Shown here in pieces: positions 6,507 to 54,705 of a stretch of 64,000 nucleotides of DNA (position 1 is its first letter; each line of letters starts with the position of its first letter). The translations under genes were made by a program, and so were the position numbers. A model generated the notes under the pieces. That model was not told the origin of the DNA, ran no database searches, and was given only the letters and a program-made list of their open reading frames with translations. The stretch is from a virus. Location: the IMG/VR virus record IMGVR_UViG_3300017917_003637, positions 22,763-86,762 of that record. One strand, given 5' to 3'.

Positions 6507-7196
6507 ATGCAAAGGGTTATAGAGAAACTACACATTAGTGAAATCCCACTAATATCAACTGTTACTAGAGATGAATTTATTACTGCTAGTGAAATAGCAT
6601 TTGATTGCAAATTCGATGGACATTCATTATTTTATCCATGGGTGTTACCAAAATCAATACCTAGTAAATTTAAGATTGGTGTGATTGTTGGTTCCAGCGG
6701 TTCTGGTAAATCAACACTTTTAAAAGAATTTGGTGTTGAAGAAACACCAATATGGGATTCAAATAAATCAATCATTTCACATTTTGAAACACCTGAAGAT
6801 GGTATTAACAAGTTAAGTTCAGTTGGGCTTAATTCAGTACCTTCATGGTATAAACCATATCACGTTTTATCCAACGGTGAAAAGTTCAGAGCTGATTTGG
6901 CCAGAAAGATAAGGTCCAATGCTGTTATAGATGAATACACCAGTGTTGTGGATAGAAACGTAGCCAAAGCGGCCAGTGTGTCGTTATCAAGGTATGTAAA
7001 GAATAATGATATTCATAACATTGTATTATCAACATGTCATAGAGATATATTGGATTGGCTTGAACCTGATTGGGTAATAGATACAGATAGTGGTGAGCTA
7101 ATCGACGGTTTTTTTTTGTCCGACCAGAAATCAAACTTGACGTATATCGCACAAGCCATGATTGTTGGAGAATGTTTAGCCAGCATCACTATTTAG
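6507..7196 (+). CDS. ABC-type ATPase domain (N-terminal part of a frameshifted ATPase-GNAT)
   Basis: Walker A GSSGSGKST, signature LSNGEKFR, Walker B AVIDE, H-loop STCH; no membrane domain. Confidence 0.85.
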   Translation: MQRVIEKLHISEIPLISTVTRDEFITASEIAFDCKFDGHSLFYPWVLPKSIPSKFKIGVIVGSSGSGKSTLLKEFGVEETPIWDSNKSIISHFETPEDGINKLSSVGLNSVPSWYKPYHVLSNGEKFRADLARKIRSNAVIDEYTSVVDRNVAKAASVSLSRYVKNNDIHNIVLSTCHRDILDWLEPDWVIDTDSGELIDGFFLSDQKSNLTYIAQAMIVGECLASITI

Positions 7197-7597
7197 ATGC
7201 TAAAGTGAATAAAGCTGCAAGATTTTATGTTGGGATATGGGATGGGAACGTTGTTGCGTTTGGTGCTGCTATAACAATGCCAAATGGAGCTGTTAAAAAC
7301 GCATGGAGGGGTCATAGGACCGTTGTGTTGCCAGATTTTCAAGGAATGGGTATAGGTGTTAGGTTTTCAGATATAATCGCGCAAATCCACTTAAATGAAG
7401 GTCACAGATATTTTTCAAGAACCGCACACCCGCGCATGGGGGAATATAGGGAGAAATCACAGTTGTGGAAACCAACCAGCAAAAATAAAAAATTAAGAAC
7501 TGATGTTAAACATGAGAATGTTTATAACAATCATTTTGCGGATAATAAAAGGGTGTGTTATAGTCATGAATACATAGGCATAAAAAAAGAGGGATAA
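7109..7597 (+). CDS. GNAT acetyltransferase domain in the -1 frame relative to the ATPase
   Basis: RTVVLPDFQGMGIG acetyl-CoA motif; the frame is open from 7097 and reads FFFVRPEIKLDVYR...WRMFSQHHYL from the T9 run (in-frame ATG at 7172). Confidence 0.8.
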   Translation, partial: FFFVRPEIKLDVYRTSHDCWRMFSQHHYLDAKVNKAARFYVGIWDGNVVAFGAAITMPNGAVKNAWRGHRTVVLPDFQGMGIGVRFSDIIAQIHLNEGHRYFSRTAHPRMGEYREKSQLWKPTSKNKKLRTDVKHENVYNNHFADNKRVCYSHEYIGIKKEG

Positions 7598-8722: not shown

Positions 8723-11227
8723 TTATGCTTTTTTCTTTGAAGTAGTTTTTTCTATTACTAGAGTTTCCTCATCCTTAGAATATACAATTTTAATCGTATC
8801 CCCTTCTTCAAAGGCTTCTGTTAGAATTTCGTCAGCCACTAAGTCTTCAACGTAATGTTGGATGGCTCTGTTGAGTGGTCTGGCACCGTATTCTTCATCG
8901 TAACCTTGTGTTGCAATAAAATCCAAGGCTTCCTCTGTAATATCCAAATTAAATTTCAACTCAGCAAGTCTGCTTTCCAAGTGTTTGATTTCGATATCGA
9001 TAATCTCTCTGATGTTTTCTTTTGAAAGAGAATTGAACACGATGGCTTCATCAATACGGTTAAGGAATTCTGGTTTGAATTTTTTCTTAAGAGCTTTGTC
9101 AATAATCGCTCTTGTTTTGGCTTGTTCGTTGAATGCGCTAACACCAGTTTCAAATCCCATGTTTTTACCAAATGAGTTTGCTTCTTTAACACCAATGTTA
9201 GAGGTCATAATGATAAGAGCGTTTTTAAAGTTAACCTTACGGCCAAGACCATCGGTTAAATGACCCTCATCAAGCAATTGCAATAGCATATTGAATACAT
9301 CATCATGAGCTTTTTCAATCTCATCAAACAAGATTACACAGTGTGGTTTACGTCTAACTTTTTCAGTTAACTGACCACCTTGGTCGTAACCAACGTAACC
9401 TGGTGGTGGACCAACCAATCGAGATACAGAATGTTTTTCCATGTATTCAGACATGTCAACTCTAACAAGAGCTTCAGCGTCACCATATACATGTTCAGCT
9501 AGCAATTTAGCCAAGAGTGTTTTACCAACACCTGTTGGTCCTAAGAAGATAAATGAACCAACTGGTTTATTTTTATCCTTGATACCGATTCTGTTACGTT
9601 TAATTGCTTTAACAACCTTAACAACAGCATCTTCTTGTCCAATAACTTTTCCGCTCAACTCTTTGTCCATGTTCATAAGACGTTTGCTTTCTTGAGTTGA
9701 AATTTTGTTAAGAGGAATACCAGTCATCATTGAAACAACTTCAGAGATTAACTCAACACCAACTTCAGTTACTTTATCATCTAAGTTTGTCTGCCAATCG
9801 TGGATGGCTTTTTCTAAGTTGTCAGTGATTTCTCTTTCTTTATCACGAAGTTTAGCAGCTTCTTCGTATTGTTGTTTTTTTACAACTTCAGTCTTTTTAT
9901 CAAGGATTTCTTTGATTTGTTCTTCAAGTTCTTTTATATTCTCTGGTTTTTCAACAGATACGTTTGTTGTGGCACCAGCTTCATCCAACACATCGATAGC
10001 CTTGTCTGGCATCGCTCGGTCCATAATGTATCTTGCGGATAGCTTAACACATTCTTCAATGGCTTCTTCGGTGTATTTTACTCTGTGGTGTTTTTCGTAT
10101 TTTTCTTTGATGTTCATCAAAATAACTTTGGTTTGCTCTAAAGTAGGTTCTTCAACAAGCACTTGTTGAAAACGTCTTGTAAGAGCACCGTCTTTTTCGA
10201 TGTTTTCACGGTATTCGTCGAGTGTTGTTGCACCAATGATTTGAATCTCACCTCTAGCCAAGGCTGGTTTAAAGATATTTGAAGCGTCCAGTGAACCGCT
10301 TGAATTACCAGCACCAACAATGGTGTGTAACTCGTCTATGAACAATACGATATCTGGGTTGGATTTACACTCTTCAAGAATGGCTTTCATTCTTTCTTCA
10401 AATTGACCACGGTATTTAGTACCTGCAACAATTGACGCTAAGTCTAGCATGTAGATTTTTTTACCAGTAAGTGTTCTTGGTGCGTTGCCTTCAAAGATAA
10501 GTTGAGCAAGCCCTTCAACGATTGCTGTTTTACCAACACCAGGTTCACCAATCAAAACTGGGTTGTTTTTCTTTCTTCTTGATAGAATTTGAGAAACTCT
10601 TTTGATTTCAACTTCTCTACCTACAACTGGGTCTATTTGACCTTTTTCAACAGCCTTGGAAATGTCTCGACAAAAATTGTCCAACACTGGTGTTTTTGTT
10701 TTGCTGTCTTTGTTCTTGGGTTTTCTGAATGAATCGTTTTCATCGTGGTCTTCATTGCTAAAAGCACTGTTTTTGTGTTCTAATTTGTCCATATTTGTAA
10801 CGGTTTTAAAAAATTTGTTGTAGGTTATACCCATTTCAGCTAGTAAACTAACCAAGGGTGTTTTTGAATCTAGGATACTAAGCATGACGTGAGTAGTATC
10901 AATAATATTGTCTTTTAATTTTTCACAGTGTTTGTCTAAATTTTTGATAATCACTTTCATTTCATCTGAAAAAGGCAAATTATTTCTTCCGTGGTATCCA
11001 GTTCTTGGGGTTAAGTCACTTTTTCTTGTAAAGTCTGAAACCTTATCATATAAGTCAAATGTGTCTATACCCATTATACTTAAGGCTCTAGCACACTCAT
11101 TTTCATTATCAATCATCATAGACAGCACAACGTGTTCAGGCTTAATTCTATTGTCATCATGGCCCTTGGCTTCTTTTGTTGCAATAGTCATAATGATTTT
11201 AACTTTTGGGTCTATTTTTCTGTCCAT
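8723..11227 (-). CDS. clpC: ATP-dependent Clp protease ATP-binding subunit ClpC
   Basis: Clp-N repeats, two AAA modules (GEPGVGKT, GPTGVGKT), UVR-type QYEEAAKLRD, MGF loop, GARPL. Confidence 0.92.
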   Translation of the reverse strand: MDRKIDPKVKIIMTIATKEAKGHDDNRIKPEHVVLSMMIDNENECARALSIMGIDTFDLYDKVSDFTRKSDLTPRTGYHGRNNLPFSDEMKVIIKNLDKHCEKLKDNIIDTTHVMLSILDSKTPLVSLLAEMGITYNKFFKTVTNMDKLEHKNSAFSNEDHDENDSFRKPKNKDSKTKTPVLDNFCRDISKAVEKGQIDPVVGREVEIKRVSQILSRRKKNNPVLIGEPGVGKTAIVEGLAQLIFEGNAPRTLTGKKIYMLDLASIVAGTKYRGQFEERMKAILEECKSNPDIVLFIDELHTIVGAGNSSGSLDASNIFKPALARGEIQIIGATTLDEYRENIEKDGALTRRFQQVLVEEPTLEQTKVILMNIKEKYEKHHRVKYTEEAIEECVKLSARYIMDRAMPDKAIDVLDEAGATTNVSVEKPENIKELEEQIKEILDKKTEVVKKQQYEEAAKLRDKEREITDNLEKAIHDWQTNLDDKVTEVGVELISEVVSMMTGIPLNKISTQESKRLMNMDKELSGKVIGQEDAVVKVVKAIKRNRIGIKDKNKPVGSFIFLGPTGVGKTLLAKLLAEHVYGDAEALVRVDMSEYMEKHSVSRLVGPPPGYVGYDQGGQLTEKVRRKPHCVILFDEIEKAHDDVFNMLLQLLDEGHLTDGLGRKVNFKNALIIMTSNIGVKEANSFGKNMGFETGVSAFNEQAKTRAIIDKALKKKFKPEFLNRIDEAIVFNSLSKENIREIIDIEIKHLESRLAELKFNLDITEEALDFIATQGYDEEYGARPLNRAIQHYVEDLVADEILTEAFEEGDTIKIVYSKDEETLVIEKTTSKKKA

Positions 11228-14942: not shown

Positions 14943-17363
14943 ATGCCAACTACAAATAATCTTAACCAATTTTTGGTACCAGCTCAAGACGCTTTTTTAT
15001 ATCAATTAGTCTATAACAAAGTATATGGTGGTAGAACAGGTTGTACTGTCAACATTAACGGCACGACAGTTCAAATGGGTGCAAATTCTTCAATCGATAT
15101 ATTAGTGGAAACTATAAGTGGTGGTACTGGATGTTTGGTATCTGGTGACAAACCAAATGTGTATGGTGATAGTCCTCAATACAAATATGTTCCACAAACT
15201 TTTGTTTCCGTATGGGATACCAGAAGAACAAGTACTGGTAGTAGCACCGCAACACAAGTTAGATTGCCTTTAATTTCAACAGGTACGTATAATTTTATTG
15301 TTGATTGGGGTGATGGGAGTACAGATAGAATAACTGTATGGAATCAAGCTCAAACTACTCACACATATACTAGAGCTGGTGTTTATCAATTAACAATAAC
15401 TGGAACATTGTATGGTTTTACATTTTACAATGGGAGCACTGGTGTTGGAGATAGACTTAAATTGTTAACAATTTTTAAATGGGGGACTGGTTTTAGATTA
15501 GGAAACAATGCTGGTTATTTTTGGGGATGTGAAAATCTTCAATTAAGTGAAGTTGAAGATGTGTTAGATTTAACCAACACAACGCATTTTGGTAGTATTT
15601 TTAGAGATTGTTTTAATCTTACAACCGTAAACAGGATAAATGAGTGGAACACGTCAAACATTACCCTTATGGGTGGTGTTTTCTTAAACTGTGTTAGATT
15701 TAACCAAGATATTAGTAATTGGGATACATCTAATGTAACTGACATGGTCCTTATGTTTTCTTGTGCTGGAAGCCTTAGAGGTGTGTTTAATCAAAATATT
15801 GGAAATTGGAATACAAGTAAGGTTACAAATATGCAGCAAATGTTTTCTAACCAACCTAACTTTAATCAAGATATATCAACAAAAGTTGTTACTAGAGCAA
15901 ATGGTTCATCGTATGTTGCTTGGGATACATCTAATGTGACTACCATGAATTTTATGTTTGGGTGTGGTGCTGGTATTAGAGGTATGTTTAATCAAAATAT
16001 TGGAAACTGGAATACTAGTAAAGTTACAAATATGGCTTCTATGTTCCAAAACCAAGTTGAGTTTAATCAAGATTTATCAACAAAAGTTGTTACCGTTGGT
16101 AATTCAACATATATCGCATGGAGTACGACCAATGTAACAAACATGACGTTTATATTTGGTGGTGGTGAAAGAAATGGTAAATTTAATGGAAATGTAACTA
16201 ATTGGGATATTAGTAAAATTACTAGTATGCAAGCTTTATTTGCGAATAAAATTGATTTCAATCAAGATATATCAACAAAAGTTGTTACCGTTAGTGGTTC
16301 ATCTTATATTGCTTGGAACACAACGAACGTAACTATTTTAACCTCATTATTTTCGTGTTCAGTTAATTCTGGTAATTTTAACCAAAATATTGGAAATTGG
16401 GATACTAGTAGAGTTACATCTATGTCCTTTATGTTTAATGGTCAACCTAAATTTAATCAAGATATATCAACAAAAGTTGTTACCGTTAGTGGTTCATCGT
16501 ATATTGCTTGGAACACAGCTAGTGTGACTACTATGGATTCAATGTTTAATTCTGTAGTTGTTGACGGTGAGTTTAATCAAAATATTGGAAATTGGAATAC
16601 TGGTAGGGTAACAAGTATGAATCAATTGTTTACTGGACAGCCTAATTTTAATCAAGATATATCAACAAAAGTTGTTACCGTTAGTGGTTCATCATATGTA
16701 GCTTGGAACACGTTGAGTGCTACTAGTATGAGTTTCATGTTTTTTACTTATGGACCAACATTTAATAGATTGTCTGGTACTTTTAATCAAAATATTGGAA
16801 ACTGGAACACTAGTAGAGTAACAACCATGGCCTCTATGTTTGTTAATCAAGCTAATTTTAATCAAAACATAGGAACAAAACAAGTTACAGTTAGTGCGTC
16901 GACTTATTCTGCTTGGACTGTTTCTGCTGTTACTAGTATGTTTGATATGTTTTATATTCACAATCCTACCACAACTGGTGGGCTTGCTGGCTCATTCAAT
17001 AACAGTGGTTCTACATCAATAAACAATTGGGACGTTAGAAGATTAAGTGCTGCTACAGATATGTTTAACTATCAAATAGGTTTTAATCAACCCATAGGGA
17101 ATTGGAATATAAGTGGTGTTACTAATTTTAGTTCTACTGGTAGCACTATAGGAACTGAAGGTTTCATGTTTGGTAAAACTAGCAACGATTATTCTAGTGC
17201 AAATTATGACGCATTGTTGATTGGATGGGCAACAAGAAATGTAAGACCAAACCAATTATTAAACATGGGTACAATAAAATATTCTAGTGCAGCCGTTTCA
17301 GCTAGAAGTGTATTAACATCGGCACCTAACAATTGGACAATAATAGATGGAGGGTTAGTATAA
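14943..17363 (+). CDS. PKD + DUF285/BspA-like surface repeat protein with phage-specific N-terminal module
   Basis: VDWGDG...HTY..AGVY (PKD); many [16 protein letters not shown] repeats; NYDALLIGW cap; ATATTTAT at 14920-14927. Confidence 0.85.
15864..16850 (+). repeat. Intragenic tandem repeat, ~195-bp period, 5 copies
   Basis: Units start at 15864, 16065, 16260, 16455 and 16650; a 44-bp block AATCAAGATATATCAACAAAAGTTGTTACCGTTAGTGGTTCATC is identical in the last three. Confidence 0.85.
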
Positions 17364-17658: not shown

Positions 17659-17901
17659 ATGCCAAAAAATAATGATGTATATAGCGTAATTGTACCAGCT
17701 CAAACTCCAAATTTGACAGCACACACTTACTCTACCATTTATGGTGGTTCTTCTGGTTGCACCGCTGTAATTAATGGTGTAACTGTTAGTGTTGGCGCGG
17801 CTTCTTCTTTTGATTTGACAATCAGAAGTATAAGTGGTGCTACAGGATGTTATTTACTAGGTGACAATAAAAACGTATATTTAGGTTCACCTAATTTATA
17901 G
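17659..17901 (+). CDS. 80-aa protein paralogous to the N-terminus of 14943-17363
   Basis: Colinear similarity VPAQ...YGG..GCT..ING.TV..GA.SS.D....ISG.TGC...GD..NVY..SP; ATATTTAT at 17636-17643. Confidence 0.8.
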   Translation: MPKNNDVYSVIVPAQTPNLTAHTYSTIYGGSSGCTAVINGVTVSVGAASSFDLTIRSISGATGCYLLGDNKNVYLGSPNL

Positions 17902-17934: not shown

Positions 17935-19152
17935 ATGGAAAGAAATTTTAGAATCAACCCAGTTGGTCTTAAAGGAAATGAAATCAACGAGCGTATGAAA
18001 CAACTTATGGGTGTAACACCTATAAACGAAGGTTTATCTCGTTCAACAGTTGAATTAACCAAAATTGGTCCAGATGGTAAAGCATATGGTATTGTAAGAG
18101 AAAATCATGAATATTACATAAAAGTATCTGACAAGACCGAAAACCTTACTGTTGAGGACTTTAAATACATTGGTGGTCTTCAAAATAAAAAATCAGAAGC
18201 GTATCCATCATATGCTAAAGCTACTAAACACTTAAACTTAAAATTTAACTCTATTTGCGAATCATTTGATATTGTGAATACATTCAACGTATTTGTTGAT
18301 GATAACTTGTTATCTGAAGGTGCTGCTAAAGAAGCTACTAAACACATTACAGATGCTAAGGGTAAAGAGTTAGGTGGTAAAGTAAAAGAAGAAGGTGGTG
18401 ATAACTTGGCTGAGAAAAAAGTCATGGATGAATTAGAAGAAGTTACTCTTACTGAAGATGAGTTAGCTATTGACGCTATGCTTAACGAAAGTGATGAAGA
18501 AGACTTGGATGAGTCAGCTCAAGGTGAAGTTGGTGCATATGCTCATGAAAAATCTAAGAAAAAAGACAAAGAAAAAGATGAAGATGAAAAAGACTTAGAC
18601 GAAGCTGAATCTAAAAACAACCCATGGGCTATCTGTACCGCTAGTGTTGGTCGTGAAGACAAAGAAAAATACGAAGCGTGTGTTAGAGACGTTAAAAAAC
18701 AAAAAGGTGTTAAAGAAGAATTAAAAGGTGGTCAACACAAAATCGATGCTAATAAAAATGGTAAGATTGATGGTGAGGATTTTAAACTTCTTAAAAAAGG
18801 TAAAACCAATGAAAACATTGATGACCAGATGTCTACTGACGAATTAATGGATAAACTAGATAATATGTCAGCTAAAGAATTGTTACAATTGTTAGGTGAT
18901 GCTGGTAGAGACTTGAAAAATGTAATTGCTAGAAAATTATCTACAGGTATGGATAAAGCTAGAGATTTTTTTGATAAGCAATATCCAGATGTTAACGAAG
19001 AAATGACTGACAAACAAAAGAAATTTGCTGCTTTGGCCGAACCTAAAGATAAAATCACATATGCTGATAAAATTGCTGGTGCTACCAAAGATGAAGCTAT
19101 GACACTTGAAGAAATTCAAGAGGCGATTGCTGATTTAAAAAAAAAACTTTAA
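17935..19152 (+). CDS. Modular putative head-internal protein, part 1 (ends at a slippery site)
   Basis: 405-aa ORF of short modules separated by xxE sites; ends GAT TTA AAA AAA AAA CTT TAA. Confidence 0.75.
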   Translation: MERNFRINPVGLKGNEINERMKQLMGVTPINEGLSRSTVELTKIGPDGKAYGIVRENHEYYIKVSDKTENLTVEDFKYIGGLQNKKSEAYPSYAKATKHLNLKFNSICESFDIVNTFNVFVDDNLLSEGAAKEATKHITDAKGKELGGKVKEEGGDNLAEKKVMDELEEVTLTEDELAIDAMLNESDEEDLDESAQGEVGAYAHEKSKKKDKEKDEDEKDLDEAESKNNPWAICTASVGREDKEKYEACVRDVKKQKGVKEELKGGQHKIDANKNGKIDGEDFKLLKKGKTNENIDDQMSTDELMDKLDNMSAKELLQLLGDAGRDLKNVIARKLSTGMDKARDFFDKQYPDVNEEMTDKQKKFAALAEPKDKITYADKIAGATKDEAMTLEEIQEAIADLKKKL

Positions 19153-20630
19153 GCGAAGCTAAAAAATATAAATTGAAGTTGGATAAACCAGCGTCAGAGG
19201 CTCCTATTGCCCCTGCCCCTGCTCCAGCTGAACCTACAACCGAACCAGCTGATGAAGCTGGTTTTGGTGATTTTGGGGGTGAGGAAATGCCAGCAGAACA
19301 ACCAACTGGGGATGAAGCACCAGCAAACGATATGCCTGATTTTGAAAAAGAACCATTTGACGCTGGAGTTGATGCTGATGAGGAAACTGACCCTAAAAAA
19401 TTTATTGAGCAATTAAGTGGTAAATTAGGTCAGTCATTAAGACAGTATACCAAAGACCAAGGTCAACCAGATTTTGAATTGGAAAAATTCGCAATTAATT
19501 CAGTTATTTCAGCAACAAACACTGCTGATATGGATGAAGAAGATAGAAATGATATTATCAAAAAAATAGAAAAATCTGGTGAAGATGAAACACAAGACTT
19601 TGGAGATGATAATCAAGCTGGCGCCGACGCTGGAGATGATTCTTTCGGTGGACCCGATAACGGGGCTGGTAATGCTGATGAGTTTGATTTTTCATCTGAT
19701 GAAGAACCAGTTCAAGAAGGTAAATTTATGCTTGACAAAACAAAAAAACTAAGCATCTTTGCACCTGAGGGCAGTGAAGAAGCAAAATTTAAACACATAA
19801 ATGAAATGAAAGAAGGTTCAAACAATTACATGTTCTGGCAAAATTTAAAAACTATTGTACATGCCGCATCTGAATTATTAAAAATGGATTGTGACCAAGT
19901 TGATACATTGTTATCAGATGGTCATGGTTGGGCTCTTGACCACATGGCTACATCCGCTGATGACGTTGAAGAAGTGTATCACTTTGTTGAAGGTCGTTTA
20001 AACGATACCCATGAGGATTCTGGTGAAGAAATGGATTATTCAAAATGGGCTCAACCAATGAAATTAAACCAACCAGTTACTGTGTCTAAAGACTTAGCTT
20101 ATCACTTAACTAACGAAATCGCGTTGGGCGAATCTATTTTCAGATATGGTTCTGAAAAATTCCAAAACCTTGTTAAAGAAGTAAGACAATTAAAAGCTAA
20201 GGGTCTTATTGATTTGAATGAAAATGACCAATTTATCGTTGAAGATTATGACAACGGTTTTGTTGTGATTGGTGAAAACAAAGTTAAATTAAATACAATC
20301 TTTGAAGAATTTGATGCTGAGACAATCAACGAAGCTGAGTATCAAGGTAAAAAAGTACAGTTAGGTAAGCCTAAACGTGGTGGTTCTAAAAAATTCTACG
20401 TTTATGTGAGAAATCCTAAGACTGGTAAAGTTAAAAAAGTATCATTTGGAGCTCAAGGTGGTGGTGGTAACTTAGCGGTTAAATTAAAAGACCCTAAGGC
20501 TAGAAAAGCATTTGCTGACAGACACAACTGTAAGGCTAAAAACGATAAAACAAAAGCTGGGTATTGGGCATGTAGATTGCCTAGATATGCTAAATTATTA
20601 GGTTTATCAGGTGGTGGTACTTGGTGGTAA
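19134..20630 (+). CDS. Modular putative head-internal protein, part 2 (-1 frame continuation)
   Basis: Frame opens at 19134 after TGA 19131-19133; only a TTG start at 19173; basic C-terminal module AEYQGKKVQLGKP...RHNC...AGYWACR. Confidence 0.75.
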   Translation, partial: FKKKTLSEAKKYKLKLDKPASEAPIAPAPAPAEPTTEPADEAGFGDFGGEEMPAEQPTGDEAPANDMPDFEKEPFDAGVDADEETDPKKFIEQLSGKLGQSLRQYTKDQGQPDFELEKFAINSVISATNTADMDEEDRNDIIKKIEKSGEDETQDFGDDNQAGADAGDDSFGGPDNGAGNADEFDFSSDEEPVQEGKFMLDKTKKLSIFAPEGSEEAKFKHINEMKEGSNNYMFWQNLKTIVHAASELLKMDCDQVDTLLSDGHGWALDHMATSADDVEEVYHFVEGRLNDTHEDSGEEMDYSKWAQPMKLNQPVTVSKDLAYHLTNEIALGESIFRYGSEKFQNLVKEVRQLKAKGLIDLNENDQFIVEDYDNGFVVIGENKVKLNTIFEEFDAETINEAEYQGKKVQLGKPKRGGSKKFYVYVRNPKTGKVKKVSFGAQGGGGNLAVKLKDPKARKAFADRHNCKAKNDKTKAGYWACRLPRYAKLLGLSGGGTWW

Positions 20631-24904: not shown

Positions 24905-26671
24905 ATGCTAACAGCACAAGAAATATTTAAAGAATATTCTAAGTGTCTCATGAATCCAATTTATGCGATTGAGACATACTTGGAAACGTTCGATAAGACG
25001 CAAGAAGGGTTTGTTCCCTTTAAACTATTTCCTAGACAAAAGGAGATTATAAACGCATACGAAAAGAACAGATTTAACTTGGTGACAAAACCAAGACAAG
25101 CTGGGGTTTCTACCACAACAGCAGCATATATGGCGATAAAAGTTGGATGGGCCGACGAGGATAACCCAGAAGCGGTTCTTATCATCGCCAACAAACAAGA
25201 ATTGGCCTTCGAGTTCTTGGCCAAGATTAAAGACTTTTTATCTCAGTTACCTAGATGGGTTTGGGGTCATGAATATTATGGTAACCCTAAAAACGAGGGT
25301 AAATCAATTTTCCTTACCGATTCTAAAAAAGAAATTAAGTTACCTAACGGTAGTCGTGTTAAAGCAGTTGCAACATCTAAGGATGCTTTGCGTGGTTTTA
25401 CACCAACCTTCCTTATCATGGATGAGGCTGCGTATATTGACAACGGAGCTGAGGTATTTGGTGCCGCTCTTACCGCATTAGGTACTGGGGGTAGAGCTAC
25501 ACTTATTTCTACACCTAACGGTATGGACCCATTATACTACAAAACATATGACCAAGCAAGAACCAAAAAGAACAATTTCAACATTATTGAAATGAAATGG
25601 TATGAAGACTTGCGTTACAACAAAGACTTGAGATGGGTTAAGGGTGATGATATTGAAAAAGAAATATATTTTACTTTTGAATCCTATCAAAGAAGAATTG
25701 CAGATGGTTGGAAACCCACATCAAGCTGGTACGAAGAGATGTGTATGGGTATGAACAACGATGCCCGTATGATTGCCCAAGAGCTTGATGTATCGTTTAT
25801 TGGTTCTGGGGGTAATGTGATTAGTGAAGAATTTATCGAATACCACGAGAAAAACAATGTGTTGGAACCTAAGATAACCATGGGTCTTGAAAATGAGATA
25901 TGGATATGGGAAGAACCACAGGAAGGACACCAATACATTATGGGTGTTGACGTTTCTAGAGGTGATGGTGAGGATAGTTCTACGATTGTAATAATTGATT
26001 TTACGACCATGGAACAAGTAATGGAGTATCAAGGTAAGATTCAACCAGACTTATTGGCTCAAATCGTTGAGGAATACGGTGAATTGTATGAGGCCTATAC
26101 TGTTGTCGATGTTACTGGTGGTATGGGTGTGTCAACAGTTCTTAAATTACTTGAATTTAATTATAAGAGATTGCACTACGATGACGCAACTGGTAAAATT
26201 TTATCGGCTAGACAAAGAGAATTAAATAGCCATTTGAAGAAGGATAAAATCCCAGGATTTCACGCAACAAATGTTCGTGTACCGATGATTTCAAATTTGG
26301 AATATAAAATTAGAACCAATGCTATCAAGATACGTTCTAGTCGCTTGACTTCAGAAATGAAAACATTTATTTATAAGAATGGTAGACCTGACCACATGGA
26401 AGGTTATCATGATGACTTACTTATGTCATTGGCAATGTGTCTTTGGGTTATGGAACACTCATTTAAAAAACTTGAAAGACTAGAGAAACAAAATAAAGCG
26501 ATATTAAATAGTTGGCTTAGTGGTGCGAATGTTTCGTCAACACCAACGATTAGAGATAAAGACCCAAATACTGGGAATATTACACAGAAAATAAACCCCA
26601 CACATACTGCATATAAAAATGTTCAAGACCCTAGAGGTCAGTATTCGTGGTTATTTGCTAAACCAAGATAA
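24905..26671 (+). CDS. terL: Terminase large subunit (T4 gp17-like)
   Basis: KPRQAGVST, Walker B LIMDEAA, ISTPNG, QELDVSF, nuclease GVDVSRGDGEDSS and HDDLLMS; ATATTTAT at 24879-24886. Confidence 0.93.
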   Translation: MLTAQEIFKEYSKCLMNPIYAIETYLETFDKTQEGFVPFKLFPRQKEIINAYEKNRFNLVTKPRQAGVSTTTAAYMAIKVGWADEDNPEAVLIIANKQELAFEFLAKIKDFLSQLPRWVWGHEYYGNPKNEGKSIFLTDSKKEIKLPNGSRVKAVATSKDALRGFTPTFLIMDEAAYIDNGAEVFGAALTALGTGGRATLISTPNGMDPLYYKTYDQARTKKNNFNIIEMKWYEDLRYNKDLRWVKGDDIEKEIYFTFESYQRRIADGWKPTSSWYEEMCMGMNNDARMIAQELDVSFIGSGGNVISEEFIEYHEKNNVLEPKITMGLENEIWIWEEPQEGHQYIMGVDVSRGDGEDSSTIVIIDFTTMEQVMEYQGKIQPDLLAQIVEEYGELYEAYTVVDVTGGMGVSTVLKLLEFNYKRLHYDDATGKILSARQRELNSHLKKDKIPGFHATNVRVPMISNLEYKIRTNAIKIRSSRLTSEMKTFIYKNGRPDHMEGYHDDLLMSLAMCLWVMEHSFKKLERLEKQNKAILNSWLSGANVSSTPTIRDKDPNTGNITQKINPTHTAYKNVQDPRGQYSWLFAKPR

Positions 26672-26984: not shown

Positions 26985-29045
26985 ATGGCAAAAGAAAATT
27001 TAACAATATTTCAAAGGTTAAACAGAGTTGTTAACCCTAATTACAATCCACCACAAAAACAAACCACACAACGTTTTAATTTGGGTGGTGGTGAGTTGCT
27101 TAAGACTACAAGCAAAGCTGAATATGAATCGGCTAAATTACAAGCACAACAAAATAAATACTTACAAAGCACATGGAAACGAGTTGAAAACGGTTTGTTT
27201 CAACAATCAATAAATTATGAAACAACTCGTGTTGGTTCTTATTCTGATTTTGAAGCCATGGAGTTTTACCCGACAATTGCTGCTGCGTTGGATGTGATGA
27301 TGGAGGAATCTACCACGGTAAACGATAGAGGTAGAGTGCTTAATATTTATTCAGATAGCAAGCGTGTTAAGGGTATTCTTGAGGATTTATTTTTTAACAG
27401 ACTAGATTTACACACTACGTTACCAATGTGGGTTAGAAACACATGTAAATATGGTGATAATTTTGTCTACTTAAATATCAATGATAGACAAGGTATTGTA
27501 TCCGCAAAACAAATGCCTAACTATGAAATGGAGCGTAGAGAAGCTGGGTTATATGATTTGGTTAGTGGTAGAGAATATTCTGATAACCAAGATGAAAATA
27601 AAGACAGAGTAAAATTCTATTGGAGAGGTCGTGATATTGAATTTAACTCATGGCAAATCGCCCATTTCCGTTTGTTAGGCGATGATAGACGTTTACCATA
27701 CGGTACCTCGGTGTTAGAAAAAGCAAGACGTATTTGGAAACAACTTATCTTATCTGAAGACTCTATGCTTGTATATCGTGTAACTAGAGCACCAGAAAGA
27801 CGTGTATATAAAATATATGTTGGTAACATTGATGATGCTGACGTTGAACAATACGTGAACGCGATTGCTGATAGATTTAAGCGTATGCCAATTATTGACC
27901 CTCAAACTGGACAAATTGACTTGAGATATAACCAATTATCAAACGACCAAGATTTCTTTATCCCAGTTAGAGATGAGAGCGCTCCGAATCCAATTGATAC
28001 GTTACCAGGTGCTGCCAATTTGGACCAAATTGCAGATATTCAATACTTACAAGGTAACTTATTTACTGCTTTGCGTGTTCCTAAACCATTCTTAGGTTTT
28101 GAAGAAGCAACTGGTGAAGGGAAAAATCTTGCTTTGCAAGATATACGTTTTTCTAGAACCATAAACCGTATTCAACAATCTATGCTTCAAGAGTTAAACA
28201 AGATAGCAATTATTCATTTGTTTATTCTTGGATTTGAAGAAGATTTAGATAATTTTACGCTTACACTTAATAATCCATCAACACAAGCGGAAATGCTTAA
28301 AGTTGAACACATGCAAACCAAAGTTACTCTTGTTAAAGATTCTGTTACTGATATCGGAAATGGTTTTGGTGTTATGTCTTGGACCAGAGCTCACAGAGAA
28401 ATATTGGGTTGGTCTGACGATGAAATCAAACAAGACTTACTTGAACAACGTATGGAGAAAGCCGCTGCTGCTGAATTACAAAATACAGCCGCAGTTATTA
28501 AACATACTGGTATGTTTGATGCCGTTGATAAAATATACGGTGATTACCAAGCCGCTCTTAAAGGCGCTGAAGGTGGTGAAGCCGCTGGCGGAGAAGCTGG
28601 TGGCGGAGGCGGAGGCTTCGGCGGTGGTGGTCTAGGTGGTGAAGATTTAGACTTTGGAGCTGAGGGTGGTGCTGAAGGTGGTGAAGAAGCTGCTGGTGGT
28701 GAAGAAGCTGCTGGTTTTGGAGGTGAAGCTGGTGCCGCTCCTGAGGCTGGTGCCGCTCCTGAGGCTGGTGCAACACCTGAAGCTGGTGGTGAAACACCAG
28801 AAGGTTTAGCTGAATCACTTAAAAAAACTGAAAAAGTCTTAACAGAAAGAAAAGAATACTTGGCTAAAAAGTTAAATGAAAGGAACCAAAAATATCAAAA
28901 AAGATTTGTTGATGTATTGGTGGAATCTGTTAAGGAAAAAAACGGAAATGAAGATGTTAGTGTTAAAATATATGACAAGAACGTTAAAATTAACGAAGAC
29001 GTTAACAATATGATAAATGACATAAATAAAATGTTGGATGAATAA
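26985..29045 (+). CDS. Portal protein (T4 gp20-like) with Gly/Ala/Glu-rich C-terminal extension
   Basis: EDSMLVYRVTRAPERRVYKIYVGN, DFFIPVR, IDTLPGA.NL..IADIQY, ALRVP. Confidence 0.93.
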   Translation: MAKENLTIFQRLNRVVNPNYNPPQKQTTQRFNLGGGELLKTTSKAEYESAKLQAQQNKYLQSTWKRVENGLFQQSINYETTRVGSYSDFEAMEFYPTIAAALDVMMEESTTVNDRGRVLNIYSDSKRVKGILEDLFFNRLDLHTTLPMWVRNTCKYGDNFVYLNINDRQGIVSAKQMPNYEMERREAGLYDLVSGREYSDNQDENKDRVKFYWRGRDIEFNSWQIAHFRLLGDDRRLPYGTSVLEKARRIWKQLILSEDSMLVYRVTRAPERRVYKIYVGNIDDADVEQYVNAIADRFKRMPIIDPQTGQIDLRYNQLSNDQDFFIPVRDESAPNPIDTLPGAANLDQIADIQYLQGNLFTALRVPKPFLGFEEATGEGKNLALQDIRFSRTINRIQQSMLQELNKIAIIHLFILGFEEDLDNFTLTLNNPSTQAEMLKVEHMQTKVTLVKDSVTDIGNGFGVMSWTRAHREILGWSDDEIKQDLLEQRMEKAAAAELQNTAAVIKHTGMFDAVDKIYGDYQAALKGAEGGEAAGGEAGGGGGGFGGGGLGGEDLDFGAEGGAEGGEEAAGGEEAAGFGGEAGAAPEAGAAPEAGATPEAGGETPEGLAESLKKTEKVLTERKEYLAKKLNERNQKYQKRFVDVLVESVKEKNGNEDVSVKIYDKNVKINEDVNNMINDINKMLDE
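28728..28799 (+). repeat. 18-bp intragenic tandem repeat (AGAAPE)
   Basis: GCTGGTGCCGCTCCTGAG x2 plus two degenerate copies. Confidence 0.8.
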
Positions 29046-31025: not shown

Positions 31026-31751
31026 ATGGATATAAATTATAAAGACTTTAGAATACTTAAGAGAGGTGAATCTGGTTGGGGTGGCCTTATTGAGCACGAT
31101 GCTGGGTATATTAGCCCAGATGAACCTAGAAACCAACCATTCATCAACGAAATCAAAAAACTAGACGGTGGCAGCAAATTAGCCATAGTCGAGCCGTTAA
31201 TCGTATATGTAGTACTTCAAAAATACGGAATCCTTAATCGTAACGGTAGGGTATATCCAGAATCAGTATTAAAAAAACAAGTTAATCTTTATCAAGAAGC
31301 AATTCGTGAGCGTAGAGCGGTTGGTGAATTAGACCACCCAGAATCTTCAATTATTGCTGGTGATAGAATTTCACATAATATTATTGAAACTTGGTGGGAA
31401 GGACAAACCCTTATGGGTAAGATGGAAATCCTTATGACTCCAGGTTTTATAAACTATGGTATTGTATCAACTAAGGGTGATGAGGTTGCAAACTTATTGA
31501 GAAACAGAATCAAGATTGGAGTTTCTTCTAGAGGTGTTGGTTCGCTTAAAGAAGGTAAAAACGGAGAACAAATAGTACAAGATGATTTTGAAATTATTTG
31601 TTGGGATGTGGTTACAGCACCTTCAACTCCAGATGCTTGGATTGGCCGTAGCGCTGAAGAAATGAAGCCATATGTTGAAAACACTGAAGTTAAAAAACCA
31701 ATTATCAAAGAAACACTTAAGGATAACTTAGATAAATTTTTAGCTGATTAA
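31026..31751 (+). CDS. Prohead core protease (T4 gp21-like)
   Basis: NRNGRVYP, AVGELDHP, IGVSSRGVGS, DVVTAPSTPDA; ATATTTAT at 30998-31005. Confidence 0.93.
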   Translation: MDINYKDFRILKRGESGWGGLIEHDAGYISPDEPRNQPFINEIKKLDGGSKLAIVEPLIVYVVLQKYGILNRNGRVYPESVLKKQVNLYQEAIRERRAVGELDHPESSIIAGDRISHNIIETWWEGQTLMGKMEILMTPGFINYGIVSTKGDEVANLLRNRIKIGVSSRGVGSLKEGKNGEQIVQDDFEIICWDVVTAPSTPDAWIGRSAEEMKPYVENTEVKKPIIKETLKDNLDKFLAD

Positions 31752-31871: not shown

Positions 31872-33128
31872 ATGGCAGATAAAAAATCAATACTTGAAGA
31901 AGCCCTTTTGGATATCAATCATATTCAAAATGCTCTTAATGCTAATACCAAAGAAATACTTCGTTCGGTAGCGAAAGAAGAAATTAACGGTGTTGTGAAA
32001 GAGTCTCTAGAAGAAGAGATTTACGAAGAAGAAGAAGTAGAGGAAACTATGGATGAAGCTACTGAAGAAGTAGAAGAAACTATGGATGAATCTATGGAAG
32101 AAATTGAAGAAGGTTATATGGAAGAAGAAGGTGACCTTGAAGAAGGCGACCTTGAAGAAGAAAGCATGGATGAAGACATGGATGAACTTGATATGACTGA
32201 CGCATCAGATGATGAAGTTATTGCTATCTACAAAAAAATGAGTGGTGATGATGAAATCGAAATTGTAGGCGATGAATTACGCTTAAACATTTCAGAACCA
32301 GGTGAATACGTTGTTAAACTTAACGGCGCTGACGAAATGGGTGACGAAGACATGGAAGATGAATTAGAATTGGAACCAGCTGACGATATTATGGGTGGTG
32401 ACGATGAAGAAGACATGGACATGGATATTGAAGATACCGATGAAGAAGGTGACGAAGAAGATTTTGACTACGAAATCGAAATGGATGACGAGGAAGACAT
32501 GGGCGACGAAGAAGACGACATGGAAGATGAAGAATCTATGGATGACGAAGAAATGGGTGACGAAGAAGAGGAAGAAGAAATTGAAGAATCTTTGGGATAC
32601 ACAAGAGGTTATGCTGGTAGACAAGGCGCTAGAAAAAATGGTGCTGCTCACTTACCAAAACCTAAATCTGAAAGTGTAAATGAAACAATCGCTGCAAAAA
32701 AATTAGTTTCTGAAACAGCTAAAAAATATAATGCTTTATTAACTGAAGCAACTAAACTTAAAGCTGAGAATAATGAATTCAGAGCAGCTCTTAAAGAGTT
32801 TAGAACAAAATTGGTAGAAACTGTAGTTTTCAATAGCAATTTAACTTACGTAACTAAATTGTTTATGGAACACTCAACAACCAAAGGTGAAAAAGATTCA
32901 ATCCTTAAAAGATTTGATGATGTAACTAGCCTTAAAGAATCAAAAAAACTTTATAAAACTATTGCTAACGAATTGGAGTCTAGAAAACCAATTTCAGAAT
33001 CAGTAGAAAATAAAATCATTAAAGAAGCTACTAGTGGTGTATCAAAACAAATTGTAGAAAGCACCGCTTATGTAGACCCTTCAACAAAGAGAATCATGGA
33101 TTTGATTAACAGAGTTGAAAGAAGATAA
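31872..33128 (+). CDS. Prohead scaffold/core protein (T4 gp22-like position)
   Basis: Very acidic centre and coiled-coil C-terminus, between protease and capsid genes; ATATTTAT at 31804-31811. Confidence 0.8.
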   Translation: MADKKSILEEALLDINHIQNALNANTKEILRSVAKEEINGVVKESLEEEIYEEEEVEETMDEATEEVEETMDESMEEIEEGYMEEEGDLEEGDLEEESMDEDMDELDMTDASDDEVIAIYKKMSGDDEIEIVGDELRLNISEPGEYVVKLNGADEMGDEDMEDELELEPADDIMGGDDEEDMDMDIEDTDEEGDEEDFDYEIEMDDEEDMGDEEDDMEDEESMDDEEMGDEEEEEEIEESLGYTRGYAGRQGARKNGAAHLPKPKSESVNETIAAKKLVSETAKKYNALLTEATKLKAENNEFRAALKEFRTKLVETVVFNSNLTYVTKLFMEHSTTKGEKDSILKRFDDVTSLKESKKLYKTIANELESRKPISESVENKIIKEATSGVSKQIVESTAYVDPSTKRIMDLINRVERR

Positions 33129-33163: not shown

Positions 33164-35023
33164 ATGTCACATTTATTGACTTCAGGACAAGTTGGTAACA
33201 TCGGATTAAACCACATGAAGGCTATCCGTTTGGAAACCCAACAAAAATGGGACTCTTTAGGATTCTTAGATGGTCTTAAAGGTCACGTTAAAGAAAATAT
33301 TGCTCAGTTATATGAAAACCAAGCTTCAAACTTGTTAACTGAGGCAACTAACGCTACATCATCTGGTTCTTTCGAGACTGTAGTATTCCCAATCGTAAGA
33401 AGAGTTTTCTCAAAATTATTAGCTAACGACGTAGTATCTGTACAAGCTATGAACATGCCAATTGGTAAATTGTTCTACTTTGTGCCTCTTACTTCAGAGC
33501 GTGTAAACGCTGCTGGTCAAGGTGGTGACCCATATGCTACAACTGCATCTAGTGATGTTTGGTCTACTAACCCAGTATACTCTGCTCACACTTCAATGGG
33601 TAACGAAGGTATTCCATCATGTGTTAAAGCTGCTGGTAGTACTTGTACTGTAACTCCATTTGCTGCTAAAAACTTGTACGATATATTCTACAACGATGGT
33701 TTATTCGATAACTCAAAAGGTACTCTTACAATTAAGACTGCTAGCCCACTAGGTGTTTACACTTTAGGTACTGACGGTGCTTTCAGTATTGTAACTGGTA
33801 CTGGTACTACTTTACCTACAGCTGCTGACGGTTCTGTTAGAAGCGTAATTGTTGCTCTTTCTGGTTTCTCAGGTGGTGCAGGTTCTAACGGTAGAGAAGT
33901 GTTGACAGGTCCTGATGGAAACAACATGGATACTGAATCATTCTTAGCGTCTCTTCACGTAATCGCTGGTTCTACATTGTTAGACGCAGATGGTAACGCT
34001 GTTGTTGCTATCAACAAAGAAGTTCCATTCCGTCTTGTTACTCAAAGATACGGTGTTGGTATCGTTTCTGGTCCTAACGTTGTAACTGATGGTAACGGTG
34101 TATGTTGGTTAGAGTTAGATTTGACTCACCCAGTTGGTACTTCTGCTACTGCTGGTGCATCTTACCCAGGTACTGCAACTTATGATGGTTATGTAGGTGT
34201 TTCTGCAACAACATTCCCTTCATTCTCAGGTTTCAGTGCTGCATGGGCTGAATACGCAACATTAGAGTTCGAAACAGAAATGGGTGAAGTATCATTCAGA
34301 CTTGATGAAGTTGTTGTTTCTGTAGAAGAAAGAAAATTAAGAGCTACTTGGTCTCCAGAGTTAGCACAAGACGTTAGTGCATTCCACAACATCGATGCTG
34401 AAGCTGAGTTGACAGCTATGTTGTCAGAACAAGTTGCTGCTGAGATTGACCGTGAAATCCTTAGAGATTTACGTAAAGCTGCTGCATGGCAATTGCGTTG
34501 GGACTACAACGGATGGAGAAAAACTTCAACTGCTGCTCAACCATATACTCAAAAAGAGTGGAACCAAACTTTAATTACTAAAGTTAACCAAATTTCTGCT
34601 CAAATCCATAAATCTACACTTAGAGGTGGTGCTAACTTCATCGTTGTATCTTCAGAGATTTCTGCAATCTTCGACGACTTAGAATACTTCCACGTGTCAG
34701 ACGCTAACCCTGAGCAAGACCAATACAACATGGGTATTGAGAGAATCGGTTCATTAGGTGGTAGATATCAAGTATATCGTGACCCATATGCACCAGCATA
34801 CTCAATCATCATCGGTCACAAAGGTAAATCATTATTGGACACTGGTTACATCTACGCTCCGTATGTACCATTACAGTTGACTCCAACAATGTATAACCCA
34901 TTCAACTTTGCTCCAGTGAAAGGTATCATGACTCGTTACGCTAAAAAAGTGGTTAACAACAGATTCTATGGTCACTTGAGAGTTGATGGTGTACAAACCT
35001 TCAACATCAATGAATTAAGATAA
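33164..35023 (+). CDS. Major capsid protein (T4 gp23-like)
   Basis: PIVRRVF..L.A...VSVQAM..P.G, RKLRATWSPELAQD, EIDREI, YAPYVPL, GIMTRY. Confidence 0.96.
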   Translation: MSHLLTSGQVGNIGLNHMKAIRLETQQKWDSLGFLDGLKGHVKENIAQLYENQASNLLTEATNATSSGSFETVVFPIVRRVFSKLLANDVVSVQAMNMPIGKLFYFVPLTSERVNAAGQGGDPYATTASSDVWSTNPVYSAHTSMGNEGIPSCVKAAGSTCTVTPFAAKNLYDIFYNDGLFDNSKGTLTIKTASPLGVYTLGTDGAFSIVTGTGTTLPTAADGSVRSVIVALSGFSGGAGSNGREVLTGPDGNNMDTESFLASLHVIAGSTLLDADGNAVVAINKEVPFRLVTQRYGVGIVSGPNVVTDGNGVCWLELDLTHPVGTSATAGASYPGTATYDGYVGVSATTFPSFSGFSAAWAEYATLEFETEMGEVSFRLDEVVVSVEERKLRATWSPELAQDVSAFHNIDAEAELTAMLSEQVAAEIDREILRDLRKAAAWQLRWDYNGWRKTSTAAQPYTQKEWNQTLITKVNQISAQIHKSTLRGGANFIVVSSEISAIFDDLEYFHVSDANPEQDQYNMGIERIGSLGGRYQVYRDPYAPAYSIIIGHKGKSLLDTGYIYAPYVPLQLTPTMYNPFNFAPVKGIMTRYAKKVVNNRFYGHLRVDGVQTFNINELR

Positions 35024-42301: not shown

Positions 42302-43030
42302 CTATAACCCTCTTTTTGTTAGTATTTCATACAAATCTTTAAATCTTTTCATAGCAATCCTTATGTCTTTGGTTGAAAGATTTGTATAATTTCTCATTGT
42401 TTCTAAAACAGAGTTTTTATTATATTTAGAACCACCGTCGAAACCTTCAAATGCGGTTTCCCAATTTTCGAGTATGTAAATCAAAGCATGGCCTACTTTT
42501 TTTTCATTCTCATTTAGTTTTTTTTTGGGTGGTAAGTTTTCATCATCCATTTCATCTTTAATATTACTAATTAAATTTAAAATGAAATCGTCCATAACAA
42601 AACTATCGTTATCAATCACGTATGTTAAATCTTGCCTTTCTTCAAAATCTGTCATCATATCCTCATATGATGCAGTTTGTTTTAAGTATTTTTCGTCTTT
42701 GATTAATAACCCTAAAATGTAGTTTTTACTTATGGTTCCAAAGTATGAATAAGCTTTTTTTCCTCTTCCAGCTTCAAATTTATGTACTTTTGTCATCAAG
42801 AAAGAAACGGTGTCACTATGAAGTTCTTCATAAGTTTCACCCTTTCTATATAACTTGTATCTCCTGATGATTGCTTCTATCATTTTATCCAATGGCGCTT
42901 TTAAGAACTCATTGAATATATTGTTCCTTTCGTTGGTGTCGTTGGATTCTAAAAATCTAATAACTGCTTCTTCTTCTTCGGGACCAAAATACATTTCGTT
43001 TTTTCTTTTGCGTCCTCGTCTAGTAGTCAT
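42302..43030 (-). CDS. Phage sigma factor, T4 gp55-like late sigma
   Basis: Sigma region-2-like YEELHSDTVSFLMTKVHKFEAGRGKKAYSYFGTISKNY. Confidence 0.65.
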   Translation of the reverse strand: MTTRRGRKRKNEMYFGPEEEEAVIRFLESNDTNERNNIFNEFLKAPLDKMIEAIIRRYKLYRKGETYEELHSDTVSFLMTKVHKFEAGRGKKAYSYFGTISKNYILGLLIKDEKYLKQTASYEDMMTDFEERQDLTYVIDNDSFVMDDFILNLISNIKDEMDDENLPPKKKLNENEKKVGHALIYILENWETAFEGFDGGSKYNKNSVLETMRNYTNLSTKDIRIAMKRFKDLYEILTKRGL

Positions 43031-53898: not shown

Positions 53899-54705
53899 TT
53901 ATGGTAAAATTTGTTTTAGTTTATTATAAATAAAGTCGTCAGCTATTAAATATTTTTTAGCTAATTCAAAATTGGTTTTAATCGAATCCATTTTAGAGTT
54001 GTAATAATTTTCGTCTAGTTGGTTAATAACTGAATTTAAATCATTTATATCATTTATTATAACCATACCATTTAAATCAAAAAATTCACCAATAGATGGA
54101 CACCCCCAATAAATAGGTATCGTTCCTGTTATAAAGGAATCTATCAGTTTTTCACTAAAATAATAATCTTTTTTACAATTTTCAATGACAATTGAAAAAC
54201 GATAATCTTTTAAAGCGCTTATTTTTTTTTCAATAGGATTATTAAAACCATATTTATCTATGTTTGTTATACTATTAAATATTAAGTGTCTAAACAAATG
54301 GCCAGAAGTGCTTTTTTTAGCTGATAAAATCATAGATATGTTTTTAGATTTATCGTGTATTTGTCTGTCTTCAACATCAATCCAACAACCACCATACGGT
54401 ACCAACACAAATTTTTCAGATATTGATAACAATGATTTATCGAAAGTAAAAATTAAATCAAACTTGTGATAATTATCCTTAATAAAATTATACGCAAATG
54501 AAGTTATTTCTGGTGACTCTAACAACCATGCAAACTTTTTTTTATTAGTAAAATTATCCACAAATTTTAATGAAAAATCTGTAAATATTAAATACTCTTC
54601 ATCGTATTTTCTAACCCAATCAAAATATTCTGGTTCATTATACCAGCTGCTAGATTTTGCATGTGAAAACATTGAATCGTGTATGTATAATTTATCTCTT
54701 GACAT
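53899..54705 (-). CDS. Alpha-1,3/4-fucosyltransferase-like (GT10)
   Basis: YRFSIVIENCKKDYYFSEKLIDSFITGTIPIYWG; ATG at 54705. Confidence 0.85.
   Translation of the reverse strand: MSRDKLYIHDSMFSHAKSSSWYNEPEYFDWVRKYDEEYLIFTDFSLKFVDNFTNKKKFAWLLESPEITSFAYNFIKDNYHKFDLIFTFDKSLLSISEKFVLVPYGGCWIDVEDRQIHDKSKNISMILSAKKSTSGHLFRHLIFNSITNIDKYGFNNPIEKKISALKDYRFSIVIENCKKDYYFSEKLIDSFITGTIPIYWGCPSIGEFFDLNGMVIINDINDLNSVINQLDENYYNSKMDSIKTNFELAKKYLIADDFIYNKLKQILP

Follow-up and report, generated by a model that had tools for sequence, protein, structure and literature searches.

The stretch of viral DNA analysed here (64,000 nucleotides, positions 22,763 to 86,762 of IMG/VR record IMGVR_UViG_3300017917_003637; hereafter the window) carries two consecutive open reading frames (ORFs), ORF1 and ORF2, that meet at a run of ten adenines (A10), where a change to the -1 frame would unite them into a single long protein. 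The window belongs to an 86.8-kb record estimated by CheckV to be 26% complete, while related contigs reach 306-362 kb. Coordinates of the features discussed below are collected in Table 1.

The 3' end of ORF1 reads GCT GAT TTA AAA AAA AAA CTT TAA. From 19134 onward the -1 frame translates as FKKKTLSEAKKYKLKLDKP... and the only ATG, GTG or TTG codon close to its beginning is a TTG at 19173. Two A_AAA_AAA heptamers are in phase within the run (19137-19143 and 19140-19146), a T_TTA_AAA heptamer is in phase at 19134-19140, and no other homopolymer of ten or more nucleotides exists in the 64 kb. With one extra A, or with a -1 shift, 404 residues from ORF1 are followed by 494 residues from ORF2 (P0002 from T5 onward), which gives 898 residues with the junction ...DLKKK/TLSE. 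An earlier reading, made from the letters of the window only, had listed the ORF ends, the A10 coordinates, the TGA closure, the -1 opening and the TTG, and had announced a product of about 898 residues with the junction DLKKKTLSE; inspection of the sequence and our own computation agree with it in every detail.

Standard decoding of 17935-19152 would produce the 405-residue protein. In a fraction of expression events the frame would change to -1 within the run, and translation would then proceed to 20630, yielding the 898-residue fusion. Judging from the relatives described below, recoding at the A10 run is very probably real and under selection.

Table 1. Location of the recoded gene, its predicted modules and the neighbouring head genes in the window (AF2, AlphaFold2; pLDDT, predicted local distance difference test)
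Feature	Coordinates	Strand	Basis or context
ORF1, zero frame (P0001), 405-residue short form, C-terminus KKKL followed by stop	17935..19152	+	sequence, translation
ORF1 N-terminal domain, residues ~33-128, invariant ENHEYYIK block, between PINE/G (E32) and LLSE/G (E128)	18031..18318	+	alignment; AF2 pLDDT 75-89 for residues 40-110
TGA shutting the -1 frame just 5' of the slip site	19131..19133	+	sequence
-1 frame (ORF2, P0002), open throughout	19134..20630	+	sequence, translation
A10 run, proposed recoding site	19137..19146	+	sequence; A9-A11 in 99/99 distinct junctions
Zero-frame stop TAA, 3 nucleotides past the A10 run	19150..19152	+	sequence
ORF2 helical module, P0002 ~68-150, many invariant positions	19335..19583	+	alignment; AF2 helices 87-148
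ORF2 middle modules, P0002 ~215-390, helical, pLDDT up to 97	19776..20303	+	AF2; tblastn
C-terminal basic module, P0002 401-498, phrog_7595, preceded by INE/AEYQGK	20334..20627	+	PHROG match
Terminase large subunit (TerL)	24905-26671		T4-type head module
gp20-type portal	26985-29045		T4-type head module
gp21-type prohead protease, Peptidase_S77, PF03420, E 3.6e-26	31026..31751	+	Pfam
Acidic scaffold-like protein	31872-33128		T4-type head module
gp23-type capsid protein	33164-35023		T4-type head module

Conservation of the junction among relatives

Searching viral contigs with ORF1 as query gave 80 loci, and a fused relative used as query added further viral and metagenome loci. The comparison set consists of the loci holding both halves, namely 147 loci with 99 distinct junction neighbourhoods; several locus-level counts, such as those of start codons and of Shine-Dalgarno-like tetramers, rest on 65 loci. 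Relative to its ORF1 counterpart, the ORF2 homologue is in frame -1 in 147/147 loci. Across the 99 distinct junctions the two frames overlap by 13-64 nucleotides (nt), and inside every overlap lies an uninterrupted run of nine to eleven adenines (A10 in 87 junctions, A9 in nine and A11 in three, never fewer than nine). This set is widely diverged, since ORF1 protein identity goes down to about 40% (tblastn) and the 45-nt flanks of the junctions are only 40-44% identical to those of the window. Indeed, the length of the run is kept while its phase and its flanks vary (65 loci), and an in-phase A_AAA_AAA is present at every locus irrespective of that phase.

The borders of the overlap follow the run closely. 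A zero-frame stop is found 2-24 nt 3' of the run in all the junctions, against 37% of control positions that have one within 25 nt. The opening of the -1 frame lies 0-30 nt 5' of the run, the closing TAA overlapping the run in the A9 forms, and the frame is then open for 261-930 codons. Moreover, AAG makes up 21% of the lysine codons elsewhere in these genes, yet it interrupts the run in 0/99 junctions; on this codon pattern we conclude that the A9-A11 run is selected at the nucleotide level.

Homopolymers are error-prone, and one might suppose that the genome really has A11, miscalled as A10, or that the locus is a frameshifted pseudogene. The same split is however seen in 99 distinct junctions and in many independent assemblies, and the contigs span dozens of different IMG dataset prefixes, which excludes a shared assembly error. 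Furthermore, both halves are clearly conserved as protein, and decay would not be expected to keep the length of the run amid varying phase and flanks. Two in-frame relatives, P0003 and P0004, both single-member fusions, have residues after KKK that are compatible with A11; even with these, we find artefact or decay scarcely credible.

The idea of two separate genes, in which ORF2 would be translated from the TTG at 19173, from a non-canonical start or by re-initiation past the stop of ORF1, and the run would be just the lysine-rich end of ORF1, agrees with the two ORFs returned by gene callers and with the existence of that TTG. The -1-frame peptide is however conserved from the run on, ahead of any start codon, with the pattern KKK-(S/T)-L-x-E...K-Y-K-L-K-L, and tblastn matches start at P0002 residues 1-11 in most loci. 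In the alignment the TTG is internal, being the first leucine codon of the conserved KYKLKL motif, and not a start; in many relatives no start codon is present at this position. From the run to the first ATG, GTG or TTG the distance is 104 nt or more in 19/65 loci and 287 nt or more in 12/65, where that codon falls inside or past an invariant ORF2 domain; in 12 of the 65 the helical module of ORF2 lies upstream of the first such codon of the -1 frame. Two genes would also leave the constant -1 offset, the existence of single-frame relatives and the nucleotide-level conservation of the run without explanation, and we consider this arrangement very improbable.

The single-frame relatives came from a profile search of the ORF1 alignment against 1.84 billion cluster representatives (E<=1e-3), by which the ORF1 family comprises 927 clusters. 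Among the best 150 of these, 106 end with KKK followed by at most 12 residues, as expected of the split form, 27 continue in the same frame into an ORF2-type region, with KKK retained at the junction in several, and 17 are truncated or otherwise different. More distant in-frame fusions, such as P0162, are devoid of KKK, and a word-index search returned four more long fusions. As the fusion is the normal gene in these relatives, a classical sign, the trans-frame product would be functional. From the residues alone, in-frame fusions with KKKI or KKKS at the junction would fit A11. In P0005 and P0006 the junction is KKKG, which an extra A cannot yield and for which an extra G after the run would be needed; P0005 is found on 4 contigs. 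When viral and metagenome contigs were scanned with P0003 and P0109 as queries, only further split loci came up, not the contigs of these proteins themselves.

The sequence-only reading had claimed a programmed change to the -1 frame that unites two ORFs into a short form and a form of about 898 residues, and had proposed the alignment of homologous loci as a check. The -1 offset of the relatives upholds this claim, the split at a slippery A run being conserved in 99/99 distinct junctions; among close relatives there are no continuous ORFs and no conserved independent start of ORF2. Its slippery element needs a correction: the A run (A9-A11) is what is conserved, while the T_TTA_AAA heptamer is found in part of the family only.

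Because gene callers report the two halves separately in every assembly, databases lack the long product of a family of some 900 clusters.

The slipping machinery and a second homopolymer site

An RNA polymerase transcribing ten template T's would allow the nascent RNA to realign with the addition of one A; a subset of the mRNAs would thus be A11 and be translated normally into the long form, and -1 ribosomal slippage on the in-phase A_AAA_AAA may contribute alongside. Slippage of bacterial RNA polymerase is known on runs of 9 A/T (PMC5009743), it requires at least 7 T's and a larger number of A's (PMC6260861), and the A11 run of tssM1 gives rise to two length variants that are both required (PMC4256274). 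A run of at least nine A/T, a hallmark of transcriptional slippage sites, is present in 99/99 junctions, and the frame reached by one added base is in each case the conserved extension of 261-930 codons, with its invariant blocks. The hallmark of ribosomal frameshifting, an in-phase X_XXY_YYZ heptamer in the overlap, is likewise present at every locus.

Helper elements were sought on both sides of the run. The minimum free energy of the 60 nt past the run is -7.6, compared with -7.5 for controls (mean z -0.36), with no conserved structure, and the 40 nt before the run, with a mean z of -0.33, contain no consistent hairpin. A Shine-Dalgarno-like tetramer occurs upstream in 15/65 loci only and is not a conserved feature. 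Thus a stimulatory element, usual but not obligatory for a -1 ribosomal shift, was not found in the 65 loci, and these comparisons lead us to conclude that the signal consists of nothing but the run. A ribosomal slip would need no more than seven in-phase A's, and A_AAA_AAG is more shift-prone than the pure run. A_AAA_AAG is absent from all 99 distinct junctions.

We favour RNA polymerase slippage because the run is never shorter than nine, because neither A_AAA_AAG nor a helper element accompanies it, and because of the literature on A/T runs; on balance it seems the likelier main route, and we infer both the slipping machine and the ratio of the two forms. Of the two mechanisms that the earlier reading had named without choosing, slippage comes out at least as well supported as the ribosomal shift, given the rule of at least nine A's and the lack of a stimulator.

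Programmed -1 ribosomal frameshifting as the main route, by a slip on A_AAA_AAA or a slide along poly-A with no RNA structure, is a serious candidate that we hold less probable. It draws on the heptamer in phase at every locus, joined in the window by T_TTA_AAA, and on phage shifts that need no stimulator (PMC5009743), and two relatives carry A_AAT_TTT in place of the run at another site of this lineage, described below. It does not account for a run never below nine in 99 junctions, nor for the absence of the more shift-prone A_AAA_AAG, and neither a conserved stimulatory structure nor a conserved Shine-Dalgarno-like element accompanies the run; moreover, the runs of at least 9 A/T in Thermus dnaX and in tssM1 act via transcription (PMC5009743, PMC4256274). 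Some observations do weigh against polymerase slippage. Since every run also holds an in-phase A_AAA_AAA, a ribosomal -1 shift fits all the loci equally; slippage might have left an excess of +1-frame stops shortly past the run, but these are no commoner than at control positions; and the A_AAT_TTT just mentioned suggests that these phages and their hosts probably make use of ribosomal -1 shifts.

That other site is a run of nine T's (T9) at 7109-7117 (GGT TTT TTT TTG), where an ABC-ATPase-like ORF (6507-7196) is continued in the -1 frame by a GNAT ORF (region 7097-7597). Among the distinct related loci, 43 have T9 with the -1 split and one has T8; two loci have T10 and are in frame, and six distant loci are in-frame fusions devoid of the run. 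Two more, L338 and L339, combine the -1 split with GGA AAT TTT, in which the canonical A_AAT_TTT heptamer takes the position and the phase of the run. From this pattern, the T9 run at 7109 is a second conserved recoding site. No sign of recoding was seen at the T9 runs of the plus strand at 42518-42526 and 54222-54230, which are A9 in minus-strand genes; both A9 runs are within ordinary open frames, where they encode KKK, and the other frames are closed nearby.

The roughly 100 diverged junctions and the second site form a broad natural data set for studying the product ratio as a function of run length, phase and context.

Protein modules and the head-region setting

The AF2 models of the two halves have mean pLDDT values of 65 and 64, and display folded modules together with long disordered linkers, either acidic or rich in Pro/Ala. 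Pfam gave no match for either half, whole or in pieces, and the single PHROG match, phrog_7595, has no function attached and covers the last ~100 residues only. With Foldseek, neither model had a match in the PDB at E<=0.001. The C-terminal basic module has a weak SH3-like/Sac7d resemblance (E ~1), and the best hit of the VIA wide structural search, Z 6.4 on a helical segment, is within the noise range of that tool. Matches in BFVD were to uncharacterised phage proteins only, a few being fusions with XkdF-like or ChaB-named proteins, and the language-model atlas led from the middle modules to DUF5661, DUF6321 and DUF5824 clusters only. No match to ORF1 was found among the phage records, and no cultured relative with this protein came to light there.

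Marine and freshwater phages also have the C-terminal basic module, as a protein of its own or as part of other fusions: it is a separate protein in Flavobacterium phage immuto, it ends a single ORF of 650 residues in Methylophilales phage Melnitz, and it is also found in pelagiphages. In loci L029, L034, L041, L062, L065 and others, the regions corresponding to P0002 ~220-296 and 395-482 are separate ORFs, located 1-3 kb downstream in another frame. As some relatives encode them as downstream ORFs, modules are shuffled between the recoded gene and its neighbours.

The recoded gene belongs to a late block of conserved synteny immediately 5' of the T4-type head module: an 80-residue gene and a DUF285 repeat protein upstream, and downstream four genes followed by TerL, all on the same strand. 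The 80-residue gene (17659-17901) is upstream in 60/64 related loci, and the DUF285 (BspA-like repeat) protein, of 806 residues (14943-17363), in 45/64. Among cultured phages, the nearest capsid proteins come from Microcystis phage Mel-JY01 and Flavobacterium phage immuto, with no more than 38-40% identity to that of the window, so that, as far as these sequences tell, the source lineage is one of uncultured giant T4-like phages. The capsid protein has 619 residues, and its best Pfam Gp23 stretch begins at residue 344, which gives a seeming insertion of ~200-250 residues after the N-terminal part. It also has LTE/A near residue 60, which we take to be about where T4 gp23 is cut.

Motifs of the L/I/V-x-E type fall at the predicted module borders of both halves. 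In ORF1, PINE/G (E32) is present in 63/65 relatives and LLSE/G (E128) in 53/62; in ORF2, TLSE/A (E8), right after the junction, is present in 38/45 and INE/AEYQGK (E400), before the basic module, in 41/43, with a further site at E195. These are Glu-rich proteins, and the counts stand without a chance control. In a head setting, the conserved N-terminal domain of ORF1 would carry the variable modules into the prohead, and the gp21-type protease would cut the L/I-x-E sites there, including TLSE/A after the junction and the one before the basic module. We propose only tentatively that the product is a head-internal polyprotein. The sequence-only reading had placed the protein in the head, made at a fixed ratio by which the copy number of the downstream modules would be set; the position in a conserved block, 5' of the genes for TerL, portal, protease and capsid protein, and the L/I-x-E motifs suggest that this could be so.

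One may go a step further and imagine the A10 run as a dosing device for head cargo, in which the slippage rate would fix the fraction of copies with ORF2 modules and the protease would free these modules, a small, basic and DNA-binding-like one among them, so that they are delivered along with the DNA. If the T9 site is counted in, the lineage as a whole would routinely use homopolymer slippage in gene expression. We regard this full scheme as speculative and rather unlikely. If true, the head-cargo reading would also reveal by what means giant phages control how much protein they inject.

Elsewhere in the window, a full-length ClpB/ClpA-type double AAA+ chaperone of 834 residues (Clp_N, two AAA and D2-small; 8723-11227, minus strand) was noted. 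On the minus strand, 43000-63200 holds about 20 same-strand ORFs, among them a double glycosyltransferase of 548 residues (57702-59348), and this row looks like a sugar or surface-modification cluster.

Comparison with known systems

The recoding is of a known kind, while for the protein family we found no published description; our literature search returned no account of either the family or the recoding site. To our knowledge, utilised recoding on long homopolymer runs is documented only for a few bacterial genes and mobile elements.

In phages, the lambda-like tail assembly chaperones gpG/gpGT and the T7 capsid proteins 10A/10B are late-gene examples of a -1 shift, with a minor long form that shares its N-terminus with the major short form. 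The gene described here is upstream of the terminase gene, its products have 405 and 898 residues, and both its family and its type of signal are different. In particular, the chaperone pair G/GT consists of small ORFs between the tube and tape-measure genes, whereas the present block, with its far larger products, ends at TerL.

In T4, the internal proteins IPI-III, Alt and gp67/gp68 are prohead-protease substrates packaged in the head. Like them, the product of the present gene has a gp21-type protease encoded nearby, small basic modules and acidic linkers, and its gene adjoins head genes; the L/I-x-E motifs at its module borders are candidate cleavage sites. Its packaging and cleavage are putative, and no sequence or fold similarity to them was found in Pfam, PHROGs or the PDB. 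We know of no frame change used by T4 for its head-internal proteins. Phage polyvalent proteins (PMC5512222) are strings of recognised effector or LPD domains in one polypeptide; the present protein is modular, with modules shuffled among relatives, and Pfam revealed no domain of the LPD or effector kind in it.

E. coli dnaX and insertion sequence (IS) elements (PMC5009743, PMC4066793) share with the present site a slippery heptamer of lysine codons, a -1 shift and two products. Their signal is A_AAA_AAG with a Shine-Dalgarno-like element and a stem-loop, whereas here it is a pure run of at least nine A's for which no stimulators were found. A closer resemblance is seen with Thermus thermophilus dnaX (tau/gamma; PMC5009743), in which a run of 9 A/T within the coding sequence leads to products sharing their N-terminus, with stops near the run in the other frames and no need for an RNA structure. 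The proteins are unrelated, and the direction is reversed: in Thermus the long form is standard and slippage gives the short one, whereas here standard decoding gives the short form and a shift is needed for the long one. Moreover, slippage is established for Thermus, and we infer it here from sequence.

In tssM1 of Citrobacter rodentium and tssM of Yersinia pseudotuberculosis (PMC4256274), an A11 run stands directly before a premature stop and added A's restore the frame; the short and full-length forms are both made and needed, and their ratio matters. There the gene belongs to a bacterial secretion system and has a narrow distribution, whereas the run described here is a feature of a phage protein family with ~100 diverged junctions and hundreds of clusters.

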